Of a stretch of 64,000 nucleotides of DNA, positions 37,363 through 55,669 are shown in pieces. The stretch is from Mobula hypostoma. Lineage: Eukaryota. The position numbers and the translations under genes are program-made. The stretch is taken from NCBI RefSeq assembly GCF_963921235.1, contig NC_086097.1, positions 40,364,001-40,428,000 on the forward strand, in the 5' to 3' direction. Numbering within the stretch: position 1 is the first letter of the stretch; the number at the start of each line of letters is the position of its first letter. The notes beneath the pieces were generated by a model. That model did no database searches. It saw only the letters and a list, made by a program, of their open reading frames with translations, and was not told the origin of the DNA.

Positions 37363-37769
37363 CAAAATACACATGGACTAAGATGTTAACTGTCCTGTGC
37401 TATCACCTGTGGGATCATCAGTTGATCTGCCACCTGTCTTCAGGAGTTTCGGCCCGCTTATGATCAAGACTCCCTCGAGGTGGTGGGCCAGCAGTGCTAA
37501 AGCACCACCTCCCACTGGTGAGCTTAAAAACTTGACATCTGCCTCTATCAGAGTTGTTGGTCACTTCCATCCAACAGATAGTCTGCTCTTCAGGTGTCTA
37601 TGCAACTACTGAAGGGTTTGCAAGATATGTATACACTGTCTGACTATCTGCCCCTCTGGACATACTTGGTCCACACCCATGCTGATCCTTTCTCTGCTGC
37701 CTCAGCTACAGCCCTGCTGGTTGACTTGATCTCTCTTCTAGTGAAGCCAAGGTCACACAGCCACTTCTG
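37363..37769 (-). mobile_element. 5'-truncated HERO-like (RLE-type non-LTR) element 3' end
   Basis: 37769-37644 translates QKWLCDLGFTRREIKSTSRAVAEAAEKGSAWVWTKYVQRGR*, which parallels TTDAAERASRWLWLKR at the end of the element at 52-54 kb. The two share a 3' UTR fold. Confidence 0.7.
37403..37521 (-). ncRNA. Non-circularly permuted hammerhead-like RNA with a k-turn
   Basis: CUGAUGA (37421-37415), GAAA (37450-37447) and GUC (37470-37468). Stem I is UUGAUC/GAUCAA and stem III is GGGAG/CUCCU; four further helices are present. Confidence 0.7.
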
Positions 37770-44998: not shown

Positions 44999-46202
44999 AG
45001 GAATCTGTTTCAAATTGTAATTGGCAGAAGTAAGTATGAATTTCCAAACTGGAAATCCCTCAGTTCTGGTCAACACAAATCAGGTACTTGCATTTTTATG
45101 CAGTTAAGCTATTTGTGTTTCAGTGCTGTATACTCAATTATTGCATGTCATGTTACGTACCCCGTAACTGGGTTGCCAAACCAGCAGAAATGGATCACTC
45201 AGTTGGAGTCTGGAGTACTAGAACTAAGAAAGTTTTATTAAGGAAACAAGCAACACAGTAATCGAAAGGATAATAAATGCAACAGTTCAGTGATGATAAA
45301 CACACATGTGCACAGAATTAAGATAACAGCATCAATCAAGCTCTATCGTTGTCTAGGGGTAAATGACCAATTTCAAAATGACTCAAAGTTCAGTCCAGTT
45401 TAGTAGTTCAGTTCGCAGTAATCGTTGCCATGGCGGTGGACAACGTGGGGGAAGAGAGAGATAGAATAGGAACAACTCATCATTCAGAACGGCTTCACTC
45501 ACAGACCAGCAAGATGGCTCACAGACCAGCGAGATGGCTCACAAACAGCTTTTGGGCAGGTCCTTGGTGATGTCACCTGAGGTCACCGACTGTGACCCCT
45601 CCTCCAGATGCGGTCGATCCTCTGCAGTGAACCCGGCACCCAGGCAAGGGCGGACACACACCGGGTTCCCGCTGATCGTACCTTTCCACCCTTGTCGTTG
45701 TCTGGGACTTCTCACCCACTCGTGAGAAGCGCACCGCTTCCAGGGTCTCGTTACCTCGGGTGGCGTGTGTGTCTGTCTTAGCGAACCTGTCCCTTTTTAT
45801 CCCCCTGCTGGGGTATCGCCTGTCCATCACTTCAAACAGTTCAGGGCTCAAAGGGGGGAGCCGCTCCAGACAGCTCTTCCTCCCACATCCCTTCATTACA
45901 CATCTCCAGACGCTGCTCCATTGTTCCTTATCTCTCCTTCCCCTGAGGGCAGGTGGCAGACCAACTGCTGATGCCACTGATGCTAGCCCAGGCCAGCAAA
46001 CATCTTAATTTTATGTGTATTCTCGTAACACTTCCCCCCTTTAAGGATTTTTACCGGGAGGTAAAAATTACAAACATGACTACATTATCTGATACATACA
46101 CAATATACATCTTTAACAGTTATTTAGCTAATACAGAGAATTTGAAGCTGTCAACACCTTGACAGACAGTCATCACATTTTCTGTTCCTTTTACACGTGT
46201 TA

Positions 46203-48913: not shown

Positions 48914-51649
48914 TTCTGCTGTTTGTCTTTTCTTTCTTTCGGGAATTTTAACCCAATCAATTTACTCCGTCCCAAATTTAGCGTTCAAAATCGCGGACGA
49001 GAACCCCACTTATGTTACGTACCCCGTAACTGGGTTGCCAAACCAGCAGAAATGGATCACTCAGTTGGAGTCTGGAGTACTAGAACTAAGAAAGTTTTAT
49101 TAAGGAAACAAGCAACACAGTAATCGAAAGGATAATAAATGCAACAGTTCAGTGATGATAAACACACATGTGCACAGAATTAAGATAACAGCATCAATCA
49201 AGCTCTATCGTTGTCTAGGGGTAAATGACCAATTTCAAAATGACTCAAAGTTCAGTCCAGTTTAGTAGTTCAGTTCGCAGTAATCGTTGCCATGGCGGTG
49301 GACAACGTGGGGGAAGAGAGAGATAGAATAGGAACAACTCATCATTCAGAACGGCTTCACTCACAGACCAGCAAGATGGCTCACAGACCAGCGAGATGGC
49401 TCACAAACAGCTTTTGGGCAGGTCCTTGGTGATGTCACCTGAGGTCACCGACTGTGACCCCTCCTCCAGATGCGGTCGATCCTCTGCAGTGAACCCGGCA
49501 CCCAGGCAAGGGCGGACACACACCGGGTTCCCGCTGATCGTACCTTTCCACCCTTGTCGTTGTCTGGGACTTCTCACCCACTCGTGAGAAGCGCACCGCT
49601 TCCAGGGTCTCGTTACCTCGGGTGGCGTGTGTGTCTGTCTTAGCGAACCTGTCCCTTTTTATCCCCCTGCTGGGGTATCGCCTGTCCATCACTTCAAACA
49701 GTTCAGGGCTCAAAGGGGGGAGCCGCTCCAGACAGCTCTTCCTCCCACATCCCTTCATTACACATCTCCAGACGCTGCTCCATTGTTCCTTATCTCTCCT
49801 TCCCCTGAGGGCAGGTGGCAGACCAACTGCTGATGCCACTGATGCTAGCCCAGGCCAGCAAACATCTTAATTTTATGTGTATTCTCGTAACAGTCACAAT
49901 GTTTTAATCAGAGCCTGATGCATTTTGTCCGAGCACTACCCTTGTTTATAGGACATCGGCTTGAAACTTTCTGGGTGATTTCAGACATTTGGTATCTCTT
50001 TAACCTCCATAAACATTTTTACCCAGCCTACGGATGTTCTATGAACATTAATGGGTCATGTATTGGCACAACCAGGTTCTTCTAATGGTTAAGGTGCTCT
50101 TGGCAGATTGAACACATCTTCCTTCTAATCTGCATCTATCGATGGAGTTATAAATAGTAACAGTGTATTTGATATCACATATAAAAAGCAAGGCTTCAGG
50201 GAGATTATACTTGGTATAATGCAAACTCTTCTGCAGTTCTAAAGGTGTGTTGGATACCCCAATATACCCCTGTCATTTTATAGATACATTTGACTGACCT
50301 CATGTGTGTAAATGTTGCTTCCCTGTCAAATATTATAAATCACTTCTCAATTTGCCTATCTGTACATATATAATTTTTGACTAAATTATAAAATGTAATA
50401 TATTTCCATTTACTACTTCAGATTTAGAACTAATAATCTAGAAAAGTAATTCAGTCAATGGAGTAATTAATAATTCACTGTGATATTAAGGGCTCTATAC
50501 TTTAACCGGATGCAGTGGTACCTCTGATTTCAGCTGAGTGAAATACACTGATTACTTGGATCTTTCATGATATAAATCAAATATGATAACTGTTTTGCAA
50601 TTAAGCAATTGCTATGGATTCTTAAAGAGTCAAGTTCTTAAGGAAGTACAACAGGTTCTAAATTTATTTTTTTTTACTCTGACAGGAATACTGTATTTAT
50701 TGTAATCACAAATCCAAAGCCAAATCCATTTTTTAAATGCAAAAGAAAATTTCAGCACTTTCCAAATTTAAGGAAATCCAGCTCTAGTCAAGAAATAATC
50801 AGTCTGGACACATCAGGTATGTTCTGCCATATAAAGCATAGTCTAACATTTGTATTGCATTCAGACATTGTTCAGCATTAATGTAGTTGCTTAAATAAAG
50901 TAGCACAGTTTCCAATTGTTACTTTTCACTCTGAGCATACATTTCAATCTGTAACAGTGAAAGAGGCTAAGGAATATTAATCAGAAGAATTACTTTCCAC
51001 TTGCCTGGATAAGTGTATCTTCAACAGCTCTAAGGTGCTCCAAACCAGCCAGTACAAAGCCAAAATATTCACTCCTCACATGCCAATGCAGAATTGCAGC
51101 AGTGTATATCTTTCAGGAAGTTCCGAGTAGCCACTCATCATAGTCATCTGACAGAACCTACAAAACTGCATGATCTCTACCACATAGAATTTTAGGGCAA
51201 TAGGTATTTTGGATCAGAACCATCGGCATGTCCCCCTCCAAGCCACCCATCATCCTGACTTAGAATTAACATCGCTGAGCCTAAAGCACCAGAGAGCTGT
51301 GTTATTTATTACCATCTGTAAACAGCTTTTAGTGATGGACAGTGAATGCCAGCCTTGCCTATAATCCTCAGATACTATAACCAAATAAACAATGTCAATC
51401 AACTCCTAACACACAGTACACTTGGTTATTCTAAAAGCTGTCGATTTGATTAAGATTTGTCTTGTCTGGTTCAAGCAAGATGTACAAAACTGGTCAGGTT
51501 ATTATAATCGAAACTTACCTGGTTCAACTAGGTTCTTTAAACTACAGTTGCTAGAAGAATAATTCAGAAATATTTTCATATCTGAGAGAATATTATTATT
51601 AACCTGCACTCCTGCACCTATTTTCTATGTTTCTATGTTTCTATGTTAA

Positions 51650-52246
51650 GACGAGGGAACACACACCAGGCCTCATAGAGGATTCAGAAGTGGAAAGAGT
51701 GAGCAATCTCAAGTTCCTGGGTGTCCGTATCTCTGGGGATCTCTCCGGGGCTCAACACACCGATGCAGATCCAAAGAAGGCACAACAGCAGTAAAATTTC
51801 ATTTGGAGTTTGAGGACACTTGGTACACACACTCACAAATTTCTACAGATGTACCATGGAGAGCATGCTAACAGGCTGCATCACCGTCTGGTATGGGGGA
51901 GGGGCACTGCACAGGATCGAAATCAGCTGCAGGAAGTTGTGAACTCAGTCAGCTCCAGCATGGGCAGCAGCTTACCCGGCATCCAGGACATCTTCAAGGA
52001 GCGGTGCCACCCATCACCCAGGACATGCCCTCTTCTCATTGCTACCATCAGGGAAGAGGTACAAAAGCCTGAAGAGGCACTCGCAACAATGCAAGAACAG
52101 CTTCTTCCCCTTTGCCATCTGATTTCTGAATGGACGTGAACCCATGAAAACTACCCCACTACATTTTTTTTCTCTTTTTGCACTATTCGATTGATTTAAC
52201 TTTTCTAATACATATGTATGTATATACCATAATTCACAGTTTTTAT
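51650..52246 (+). mobile_element. Rex1-like LINE 3' part (tail continues at 54150-54241)
   Basis: Homologous to 12216-12880 (ERVSNLKFLG-type and CITVWYG-type sequence). Split by the HERO-like insertion. Confidence 0.75.
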
Positions 52247-52571
52247 CAAGTGACCCGAAGGTGGCTAGAGCAGGGATCCAAGTGAGGACTGGCAGGAAGT
52301 GGAGGGCAGAGGAAGCTGTTCAGGAAGCAGAGGTGAGGCTGCGTCACAGGAGGCTGGTGGGAGTGGTCACACGAGGCCGAGCTGGGCTAGGATCCTGTCC
52401 AACTCCCCAAATGGACACCAGAGGGAAGGAAAGGCATCGCCTAGTTCAGGAGGAGGTGAGATCAGTAGTGGAGGAGACGAGAGCCTGCAAGGCGGTGGGA
52501 ATGAAGCAACAGGGAGCTTGGACAAGATGGGAGAATGCAGTTGAGAGGAAAGTGACCTGGGCTGATCTTTG

Positions 52572-53242
52572 TGTCAAGGTCCAGTCCATGAAGTATGCAT
52601 TCCGGTTCACCGTCCGGTCCCTGGACTCAGAACTCCGGGTCTTCCAGCTGTCCCTTGTTTTGATTGAGTTAAGCATAGGCACCTGATTCCCATCTTGGGT
52701 CTTGGAATATAAGTAGCCTCGAGGATCCCAAGCCAAGCTCTAATAACCCAAGCCTTGAGGATCCCAAGCCAAGCTCCAAGAACCCAAGCCTTGAGGATCC
52801 CAAGCCAAGCTCCAAGAACCCAAGCCTTGAGGATGCCAAGCCAAGCTCCAAGAACCCAAGCCTTGAGGATCCCAAGCCAAGACCAAGACCCCGGCTTCCA
52901 TGCCTCAAGACAAAGACTCCAGCCTGCAGCCCCAAGCCTCTAGGCCCCAGCCTCATCCTATCCTGTAGTCATGTCATGTCCTGGTTCTGGGGCCTGAGCC
53001 TGAGGCAAGACCCAGGTTCTGGGTCCTTGTCCAGTCTTTGGCTCGGAGCCGAAGCCCAGGCTCTTAGTGCATAGTTCCTTATCTGGGTTCCCTGGCTTGT
53101 TCATGCCCTAGCCCAAGTCTGCGTTCTTGTCCCTGCTCCTTGTCTGTATCCTGTCACATCCCTACTCTAGTCAAGTCTTGTTCCTTGTACTTTGGTGTCT
53201 GTGTCTCGCATTTGGGTCTGCTACCAGCACCCCATTGTGATA
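52572..53242 (+). mobile_element. Solo LTR inserted in the HERO-like ORF
   Basis: TGTCA...GTGATA termini and TSD CTTTG/CTTTC (52567-52571 / 53243-53247). The host ORF resumes after it. TATA-like AATATAAG near 52706. Confidence 0.75.
52721..52885. repeat. 36-bp tandem array, about 4.5 copies
   Basis: GAGGATCCCAAGCCAAGCTCCAAGAACCCAAGCCTT-type units start at 52721, 52757, 52793, 52829 and 52865. Confidence 0.92.
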
Positions 53243-54012
53243 CTTTCGAAAGCTGAACCACACTTGTATCCAATTTCTCATCCAGACAGTGTACGATGTG
53301 CTTCCAAGCCCATCAAACCTGCACACATGGGGCAAGGCAGAGTCATCTGCGTGCCCACTGTGATCCAAGCGAGGAACCCTGCAGCACATCCTCAGCGGCT
53401 GTGCAAGGGCACTTGATGAGGGACGGTACAGATGGAAGCATGATCAGGTCGTGAAGATCATCGCTGAAGCCATCAGCGCAGGAGTTGAGTGGGTGAAGTG
53501 GTCTCGACCCTCCAAGCAGACCATTGCCTTTGTCAGAGCTGGGGAGCAGCCAGTACCTGCCAAAAGAACATCTGCAGGCATCCTGACCTCTGCAAGGGAC
53601 TGGCAGCTGTCGATGGACCACGAACGGCAGCTGAAGTTCCCCAACCATATCGCAGCCACCACCCTGTGACCAGACATTGTCCTAGTGTCTGAGTCTACTA
53701 AGCAAGTGGTGTTGCTGGAGCTGACAGTCCCATGGGAAGATCGCTTGGAGGAGGCCTTTGAAAGGAAGCTCTCCAAGTACGCAGGACTGGTCAGCAACTG
53801 TCAGCAGGCTGGATGGAGAGCGAGGTGTCTCCCAGTGGAGGTTGGTTGTAGGGGATTTGCAGCCCGTTCTTTAGTTAGAGCCTTCAGCATTTTGGGCATC
53901 GAGGGAGAGAGGAAGAGGAGATCCATCCGCAGTACCACCGATGCGGCAGAGAGGGCCTCAAGATGGCTGTGGCTCAAAAGAGGGGAGCCATGGAGTCATA
54001 AGTAGCTAGCCA

Positions 54013-54130
54013 TCTGGACACAAGCTGGGGTCTGATCAGCCCCGGCTGGGTCACCTGGAGGAGGTTGTGTGATGTTGAAAGACCCAAAAAACCCGATGAT
54101 TCCAGGAACATCACTAAACATGTGTCCAGA
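54013..54130 (+). ncRNA. Structured HERO-like 3' UTR: same fold as 37403-37521 but with a mutated hammerhead core
   Basis: Helices UCUGGACACA/UGUGUCCAGA, GGGUC/GACCC, CCUGGA/UCCAGG and UGAUGU/ACAUCA, plus hairpin 54023-54047. Confidence 0.65.
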
Positions 54131-55669
54131 AGCATCAGTTGATGTATGTACACAGATTATTATGTATTGAAATGTACTGTTGCCACATAACAACAAATTT
54201 CATGTCATATGCCAATGATATTAAACCTGAAACTGATTCTGAGAAAATGTCTTGTGTACATTAATGAAACTATTAAACTGTTCTATTCAGCATTTTAATA
54301 TCATTGACAGTGATTTTAAAATCTGGTTATTAATGGGAATTGGATTTGATTTACTCATCAAAAACATTTTGTCTTTCGCACTTGAAAACATTATTGATCA
54401 TTTCAACCAGGCTCTAGCGGGTTACCATTTTTTGTTCATCATGGAAATTGCTTTTAAAGGAAAAGAAAATAAGTAAATTATATATTCTACGTTTCTTTTC
54501 AGACAGCTCCTTGCCTCTGTTGATGACATGACTCTGGTTGTGAGGTGACTGATGAGGCCAATGTGGGACTCACAGATGGAGCAAAAGTTACCTGATGGGA
54601 CAGGTTGGCGGTGGTTTGTGAAATAGCGTACTCCTTTACTCCTTACAGTGGGTTTCTGAGCATTGTTGAAACATGGATTCAAGGTCCACTACCCTGTACC
54701 GATGTATTGGCTCATGAAGAGTTTTATATTTGTGGATTTTAAAAGGAACATTTACTGCAACCTAATTATTTCAATTTCAAACAGATTATACACAGTTTCT
54801 CTAGATTCAGAACAAGATTTCCTCATGAATTCTTCGTGATAAGCAGAGAATCTTAAATTTCTAATGGTACTGCAATATTTTCAAAAGGTGCACTATATAG
54901 TTTGTTATCCGTACATTCAGGCTGGAATGCTGTTGGGGTGGATTTGGCTGGCTGATTCATAAAGATGTGAGAAATGGTTATGATGCAGTTTCATGAAGAA
55001 TGATGTTGATATAAAATTCTTTTCAGATTTGACAAAATAAAAGTTATTGCTTAACTTCAGGAGTGTCTTAATTCCACTACGTCAGCAGTATCAGACCTAC
55101 AGGCATTCAATGTTATGATCGTCAATGTTTAATAACATATACTGTCAGACAAACCAAGCTGCTATCTTTCTTTACCATTCCTGCTGTTTGCTCACTGAGC
55201 ACCCCATACCAAAATACATCCCCAAAAGTAATTACTCAACATATAAGAACAGAATTAAAACTTACATTAAAGTGTGGAGAGTTAAATTCAATCTGAATTA
55301 ATTTGTTAGTAATGTTGCAGAACAAAATTTATAGTATTGGTTTGTGTTTTTATAGAACACAAACCAATGCCATATCATATTGATTTGTCTTTTGATAGAA
55401 GTCTTTTTTTTAATGCTGTTGAACCTTCAAGTGAACTGGTTGCGTAAGTCTCATGGTAACAAGGTTTTATTGTCATCAATTGTCAATGTTTTGGCTCACG
55501 CAGCAACACAAACATCATGGTTCCATCAACTGTTGCAGATTGAAATTGGTGCTAGAAGCAATCTGGAACTCAAACATATTAAAGACCATTGATTGTTCTC
55601 ATCAGAGAAGCCAGTGATTTTTGAACATGTACACTTGTAATGGTAGGTGTGCTGATTCTGAATTTGAAT

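Follow-up and report, generated by a model that had tools for sequence, protein, structure and literature searches.

The stretch at 54013-54130 of the window (the whole 64,000-nt piece of DNA that was analysed) is best read as a dead copy of a hammerhead ribozyme of unusual topology, carried in the 3' UTR by HERO-like RLE retrotransposons; we give this reading a probability of about 0.7. Its fold is conserved, helices A, B, C, D, I and III covarying among related elements. The window copy does not possess an intact catalytic core: G5, G8, G12, C15.2 and position 17 are all altered. Judged by their letters, copies with an intact core very probably cleave themselves, the predicted cut lying at the equivalent of the bond between 54069 and 54070.

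Architecture of the motif

The motif lies seven bases past the stop codon of the retrotransposon (TAG at 54003-54005 on the plus strand, read directly from the window letters). From 5' to 3' its strands follow in the order helix A, hairpin B, helix C, helix D, N-G-A, stem III, U-H, stem I and a linker, and then helix C, GAAA, stem III, a 3-nt bulge with G-A, helix D, stem I, CUGANGA and helix A (Table 1). The modules, helices and altered core letters (54069, 54086, 54116 and 54119) quoted in the first-pass annotation are all present in the window letters where it had placed them. Position 17 (54069) is G in the window copy and A in the majority of related copies; G12 is replaced by A at 54086, C15.2 by A at 54090, G5 by A at 54116 and G8 by C at 54119. 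The last change also disrupts the C3-G8 pair of hammerheads, as described in the accessible text of PMC3088659. Outside the core a single pair of the window copy is broken, 54065-54092, as judged by hand.

Minimum-free-energy folding recovered helices A, B and D and missed C and I, which is expected because both are pseudoknotted. A descriptor composed of the helices and the two GA steps, free of catalytic letters, matched exactly two places in the window; 25 block-wise dinucleotide shuffles, searched on both strands, gave no match. Since it had been derived from both loci, only the shuffles serve as a control. Of the two findings that the first-pass annotation had named as overturning it, a chance resemblance is contradicted by the shuffles and a lack of conserved pairing by the alignment of related copies. 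It had also described the order and spacing of the modules as matching 37403-37521 one for one. The order is indeed the same, but the locus lies on the minus strand and the spacing agrees nearly, not exactly: its hairpin has 20 nt in place of 25, its linker 6 in place of 5, and 2 nt instead of 1 precede stem I.

Table 1. Parts of the motif, its host element and two copies with an intact core. Positions are those of the window unless a locus is named.
Feature	Position	Strand	Remarks
End of HERO-like RLE non-LTR retrotransposon ORF, 5'-truncated and broken	52246..54005	+	CCHC knuckle and PD-(D/E)xK endonuclease region
Helix A, 5' strand	54013..54022	+	Pairs with 54121-54130, 10 Watson-Crick pairs; clamps the two ends of the motif
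Hairpin B	54023..54047	+	Palindrome UGAUCA in loop; candidate kissing loop
Helix C, 5' strand	54048..54052	+	Pairs with 54081-54085; first G is the equivalent of hammerhead G10.1
Helix D, 5' strand	54054..54059	+	Pairs with 54101-54106
k-turn-like motif, non-bulged strand N-G-A	54060..54062	+	Between helix D and stem III
Stem III 5' strand, U16.1 (54068) and position 17 (54069)	54063..54069	+	Stem III is 54063-67/54090-94
Stem I, 5' strand	54070..54075	+	Pairs with 54108-54113
Helix C 3' strand, GAAA block, stem III 3' strand	54081..54094	+	
Bulged strand of k-turn-like motif (3-nt bulge, G-A, one base) and helix D 3' strand	54095..54106	+	
Stem I 3' strand, CUGANGA block, helix A 3' strand	54108..54130	+	
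Rest of the 3' end of the element	54131..54155	+	Depth drop and loose ends at 54154-54157
Same motif in a different HERO-like family, core intact	37403..37521	-	Predicted cut after 37468
Natural intact copy	L001 3438-3559		

The host element

The element spans 52246-54155, and its earlier assignment to the HERO-like RLE elements agrees with protein matches to fish RT-RLE proteins: identity to them over the final 111 residues reaches 95% (257 hits among 566 candidates). Pfam returned no family for this 111-aa endonuclease piece. Protein comparison also shows a close relationship to BAC82598.1, BAC82599.1 and AAN12398.1 of pufferfish, which we assume to be HEROFr, HEROTn and Zebulon; P0003 is 63% identical to a Takifugu protein, presumably HEROFr. 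The protein sequences thus support a HERO-like RLE retrotransposon, while the clade name hangs on these assumed identities. Zebulon reportedly occurs as partial tandem arrays. Like HERO elements (HEROFr, HEROTn, HERODr) and pufferfish Zebulon, the relatives of the window element have a single ORF in which the reverse transcriptase is followed by the CCHC motif and the PD-(D/E)xK endonuclease, with full lengths of about 1,100-1,160 codons (L001, L003, L009 and L031). In the papers searched no ribozyme has been attributed to HERO or Zebulon. HERO elements belong to the R2 group and are not site-specific, according to the accessible text of PMC3636483.

The window copy of the ORF is truncated and broken, with two in-frame stops within 53250-54002, and the remnant shows 91% and 86% DNA identity to L001. 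An unrelated insertion of about 670 bp containing a short tandem repeat (about 52572-53243) splits it. Its endonuclease end (53670-54002) is 93-95% identical to proteins of Limanda, Entelurus, Merluccius, Conger and Clupea and 90% identical to a Mobula protein; if the window comes from a cartilaginous fish, such a teleost-like sequence suggests horizontal transfer. In eight related proteins (P0058, P0067, P0070, P0076, P0082, P0090, P0094 and P0103) the ORF continues through helix A and hairpin B, and in most of them it reaches the predicted cut, ending in EGV or similar, so that the motif doubles as coding sequence in its 5' half. The exact DNA pattern of the guessed core was found nowhere in viral_contigs, where protein alignment gave no relative either; in genome_contigs the same alignment found relatives on three short contigs, probably contaminants.

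Conservation of the fold

Relatives were collected by a protein-based search that is blind to the RNA and yielded 79 metagenome loci (from the best 80 of 256 confirmed stretches) together with 3 from genome_contigs. A sequence-only model was then built from 28 hand-picked clear motifs, so the resulting alignment shows conservation where the motif exists and not how frequent it is. The model matched 55 of the 80 loci searched, 26 of the 55 being in its own seed, and the motif always lay after the endonuclease in sense orientation. In the more distant relatives L022, L028, L033, L042 and L057 the gap between the ORF match and the motif downstream of it is longer by several hundred bases.

The claim that the helices differ in sequence and still pair was borne out by this material. 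Across the structure-free alignment of 28 copies the 41 proposed pairs were formed in 91.9% of 1086 cells, and 36 of the 41 showed two-sided change, among them 9 of 9 pairs of helix A. The covariation score was reached by 0 of 500 shuffles and slid registers gave 33-42% pairing; the shuffles ignore the relatedness of the copies, whereas the slid-register controls do not. A second count set the registers by conserved letters alone and kept 21 of the 27 regions with all anchors after removal of near-duplicates. In these 21 non-redundant copies stem III was paired in 102 of 105 cells (cross-locus control 0.77), stem I in 115 of 126 (control 0.51) and helix D in 116 of 126 (control 0.54).

Helices A, B and C follow each other with no spare nucleotides between them in most of the copies listed. 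The centre of hairpin B is a 6-nt palindrome in 26 of 30 copies, and three different palindromes occur. UGAUCA and UGGCCA exchange by a double change; less weight attaches to GACGUC, which three copies have and which overlaps the stem. The copy at 37403-37521 is one of the four without a palindrome. Between helix D and stem III the A of N-G-A and the following G are invariant in the 28 aligned copies, and the third bulge base is U in 16 of the 21 anchor-based copies. The k-turn anchors were all matched without mismatch in 27 of 81 regions (the 79 loci and the two window copies), with some subfamilies deviating. L010 and L016 do not have the k-turn-like G-A steps.

The hammerhead core

All 14 core letters were present in 36 of the 42 other near-complete copies (the count covers 41 locus hits and the two window copies, with partial matches left out); three copies had one change, one had two and two had three. 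In the family majority CUGANGA directly follows stem I, and GAAA leads into stem III through A15.1-U16.1 and C15.2-G16.2. The U of the NUH triplet between stems III and I is invariant, and position 17 is A, C or U but never G in 27 other rows. This agrees with the NUH rule of hammerheads, by which G is excluded at position 17. A G10.1-C11.1 pair next to G12 is also present, with its G supplied by the 5' strand of helix C (25 of 28 copies; the first pair of helix C is G-C in 23 and G-U in 2). The best-supported helices are therefore compatible with a hammerhead core.

The motif would work like a type-SGC hammerhead, of which it looks like a rearranged and apparently undescribed variant. Helix C would act as stem II, and a four-way junction of the core with helices A, B and C would replace the bond between A9 and G10.1; the fold would thus be type-SGC-like but opened inside block C. 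The k-turn would bend helix D back and so tie stems I and II together, and the RNA would be cut after position 17. At the gathering score Rfam gave no match in the window, and for two intact copies no ribozyme family appeared up to E 10. Nor was a hammerhead in HERO elements, or one of such topology, described in the literature that was searched (titles, abstract openings and term counts of mostly open-access papers).

It might be thought that the fold is instead a non-catalytic docking structure for the reverse transcriptase, its hammerhead-like letters being protein contacts or an ancestral relic. The motif sits at the 3' end, which is where RLE proteins bind their template, as is established for R2, and insertions retain it whole. 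A canonical stem II directly after A9 of CUGANGA is also at background level: its cells pair in 45.5% of cases, or 35 of 84 in the anchor-based count, and only 2 of 28 copies form the first pair. Three observations nevertheless make docking alone improbable. Helix C supplies the pair that a hammerhead has beside G12; the three core blocks are in exact register with stems I and III; and the variation at N7 and at position 17, from which G is excluded, is of exactly the sort that catalysis permits. Docking and cleavage can, moreover, coexist.

Comparison with known ribozymes and elements

Among the closest known systems are the type-SGC non-circularly permuted hammerheads, HRIMA-1 and its variants (Eckert, Friedrich, Weinberg and Weinberg 2023, PMC10085705, like the other papers of this section cited for the accessible part of its text). 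As in type SGC, the blocks stand in the order cleavage site, GAAA, CUGANGA, the linker between stems I and II is short (about 2-7 nt here in the rows listed), and an extra helix ties the far ends of these stems. Helix D would correspond to this 'I' helix, an equivalence drawn from the description in the text of that paper and not from its figure. Unlike type SGC, the strand with G10.1 and the 'I' strand here lie 5' of the cleavage block, a different helix follows CUGANGA, and a four-way junction, a k-turn-like motif and a palindromic loop have been added. In type SGC block C is one run of stem I, CUGANGA and stem II; here it is interrupted, and for this reason we do not file the motif as a member. 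Eckert et al. assume an uninterrupted block C and consider six permutations possible (PMC10085705). The break between A9 and G10.1 violates this assumption, so that activity of the present arrangement has no tested precedent that we found.

The pseudoknot (PK) pistol-like hammerhead (Zhan et al. 2024, PMC11300833) shares a standard core, a G10.1-C11.1 pair by the A9-G12 pair and a pseudoknotted periphery. Its G10.1 follows A9 on the same strand, and it has the order helix IV, stem I, core, stem III, so the connectivity differs from that found here. The hammerheads of Penelope-like elements and retrozymes (Cervera and de la Pena 2020, PMC7229834) likewise reside in tandemly arranged retroelements. 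They cut the transcript into unit RNAs capable of being circularised, and they are also known as dimers. They are, however, type I three-way junctions in GIY-YIG or non-coding elements, whereas the present motif is pseudoknotted and belongs to an autonomous RT-RLE LINE. R2 with its 5' HDV-like ribozyme is an RLE non-LTR retrotransposon in which a self-cleaving RNA processes the transcript, as is predicted here, but that ribozyme is of another class and lies in the 5' UTR; in its accessible text the review PMC13708176 mentions HERO once and hammerheads not at all. The sequence between stem III and helix D has the signature of a standard k-turn, a 3-nt bulge followed by tandem G-A and A-G pairs (PMC5435971), and a kink is predicted accordingly.

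If the motif cleaves, it would be a hammerhead topology outside the six permutations that Eckert et al. considered possible in the accessible text of their paper (PMC10085705), and the link between A9 and G10.1 would be replaceable by a junction. Non-circular permutation, until now almost exclusively metatranscriptomic, would then be present at high copy number in animal genomes.

Loss of the core in the window copy

Contigs of three DNA runs from related organisms (X1, X3 and X9) and of one RNA run (X16, 14 contigs) were aligned to 53600-54200. The runs aligned contain at most 0.52 of the words of the stretch and probably do not include the window locus itself; X15-X20 contain small shares. 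The share of depth with the majority letter in X1, X3 and X9, respectively, was 98.8, 98.6 and 91.9% at position 17 (54069), 91.9, 95.1 and 60.2% at G12 (54086), 99.4, 99.8 and 98.4% at C15.2 (54090), 99.7, 99.9 and 99.7% at G5 (54116) and 99.8, 99.96 and 99.4% at G8 (54119). In X9 about 40% of depth is without G12 and only 8% has the partner CpG change at 54085; the deficit may reflect reference bias or a large group without G12 in the X9 organism.

The first-pass annotation had offered two explanations for the altered core, decay of one copy or a subfamily that has lost catalysis, and had asked whether a consensus would restore the core. The majority letters do restore GAAACACCC and CUGANGA but not GGGUGUC, which is GGUUGUA in X1 and X3 and GGGUGUA in X9. 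The cleavage triplet of the majority in these genomes is GUA and not GUC. Both mismatches that it had counted in stem III are present as well; that at 54065 (U-C), however, is the majority state in X1 and X3 (94%) and hence a subfamily trait instead of a change of the window copy, while 81% of X9 has G there. Since the majority letters restore the core, with 99.4-99.96% of depth retaining G5 and G8, a major dead subfamily is not supported in the three related genomes. Decay of one copy fares better in that the changes are private; their placement does not fit random decay. Among the changes listed, all five private ones are at the core (H17, G12, C15.2, G5 and G8) and none in the helices outside it.

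With the core fixed beforehand as 14 of the 118 motif positions, the probability of five out of five is 1.1e-5. The totals per kind of change imply one further G-to-A difference in X1 and two in X3, which could fall within the motif; if two do, P becomes 2.1e-4. Leaving out the CpG site gives 1e-4 to 4.5e-4, allowing only unpaired bases to change gives 0.008, and simulations over the whole stretch, with or without CpG weighting, give at most 1.5e-5. Compared with L001 all ten differences of the window copy within the 118 nt fall in the core, stem III or the bulge.

The leading explanation, although it does not quite reach even odds, is stepwise selection after insertion against cleavage of a host transcript, aided by CpG decay at G12. 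A single core change should stop cleavage, so that to account for five, selection needs further changes added stepwise or by chance. It also counts against selection that no host gene was found and that the orientation of repeats in the window is without significant bias (12 plus and 16 minus as merged, P 0.57); base skews across the window indicated no significant strand for a host transcript. If the enrichment at the core holds across copies, it would be a direct footprint of selection by the host genome against an active ribozyme, and the dead window copy is in any case a natural negative control for assays.

Chance, combined with the copy being picked for its oddity, is a distinctly less probable cause of the five changes, and ordinary neutral decay with a clustering noticed only because it is odd is a little less probable again as an account of the whole finding. 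The family is very abundant in the related genomes (summed depth over the motif is 300,000-540,000 in X1, against 5-28 for the longest single DNA-run pieces listed), so that rare patterns will occur in some copy. The G12 position belongs to a CpG, and the CpG sites of the ORF likewise deviate by about 9-11%; P rises to 0.008 if unpaired bases alone can change, and the bulk copies have no clear excess of change at G5 and G8. Against plain decay stand the per-copy probability of 1e-5 to 2e-4, the presence of only two complete motifs in the window and the inactivating kind of every change, G being the only inactivating letter at position 17.

A rare lineage with a dead core, confined to the species of the window, ranks just behind chance as the cause of the changes. 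In its fuller form, a low-copy or species-specific lineage that has a dead core and an intact scaffold, spreads in trans and is favoured because its uncut RNA is copied in full, it is about as improbable as docking. Helices A, B, C, D and I of the window copy are identical to those of L001, though the flanking DNA is only 86-91% identical, and the window ORF mixes letters of different subfamilies, which may mean that the copy comes from another lineage than the X1, X3 and X9 majority. Copies of other families seem to combine dead cores with sound helices (three core changes and 0 of 19 pairs broken in L061, three and one broken in L055), but these pair counts take the best register and accept G-U as paired and so understate changes in the helices. 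In the three DNA runs the share of depth without G at G5 or G8 is at most 0.04-0.6%, and the ORF part differs from the majority at only 4-8 of 393 positions, less than drift of a freed core would require. Least probable of all as a cause is a mutational or assembly artefact.

Possible use by the element

Insertions of the family to which the window element belongs end at about 54155, some 85 nt beyond the predicted cut, yet hold the whole motif; the template must therefore cross the cut. We consider it an even bet that this is explained by two cuts. In head-to-tail or partial-tandem copies two cuts would release a unit-length RNA, whose ends would stay paired by helices A, C, D, I and III. The paired ends might then be ligated, as for retrozymes in the accessible text of PMC7229834, or jumped by the reverse transcriptase.

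A survey of 52 of the 55 model-matched loci (L007, L015 and L034 were left out as partial) showed that, of the 38 loci with at least 300 nt of downstream sequence, 11 continue directly into a same-strand HERO ORF, head to tail. The motif also occurs upstream of the ORF in L003, L009, L013 and L019, and L043 is a circular contig. These loci are assemblies and may collapse repeats, but a head-to-tail junction must nonetheless exist in the reads. As a hint only, the contigs of L015 and L045 stop precisely at the predicted cut, and that of L009 begins one base beyond it; by eye, about 14 contig ends in all lie inside the motif. Against the proposed unit RNA it can be held that insertions do not end at the cut and that 4 of the 5 loci with at least 400 nt before the ORF start have no motif there (L020, L021, L025 and L064, L019 being the exception). 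By eye, the near-full-length insertions L021 and L064 seem to begin at the start of a conserved 5' UTR block, which in tandem units comes after the 3' end of the element; their start would lie about one unit from the 3' end and not at the predicted cut.

If the motif cleaves, the HERO clade gains a step of RNA processing at the 3' end and a testable route to circular RNA. HERO elements are R2-like, and relatives of theirs are being developed for gene insertion. More doubtful than any of its leading parts is the joint proposal that HERO-like LINEs carry a hammerhead opened inside CUGANGA, with a four-way junction, k-turn and kissing loop to close it, that unit-length circular or end-clamped templates lead to partial-tandem insertions, and that hosts silence copies by targeted loss of catalytic letters with the scaffold left intact, of which the window copy would be a clear case.

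Other features of the window

The copy at 37403-37521 follows a short ORF remnant that ends near 37650 (48% identity over 25 residues). Elsewhere in the window an insertion resembling an LTR retrotransposon consists of minus-strand ORF remnants, gag-like and pol-like, between two identical direct repeats of 881 bp with TG...CA ends (45150-46030 and 49012-49892). The last 90 nt or so of either repeat have 79% similarity to the 3' end of the family-B HERO motif and run opposite to the ORFs. Crude splice-site scans marked 54503-54544 on the plus strand, 350 nt beyond the 3' end of the element, as a candidate exon of 42 nt whose acceptor is good.
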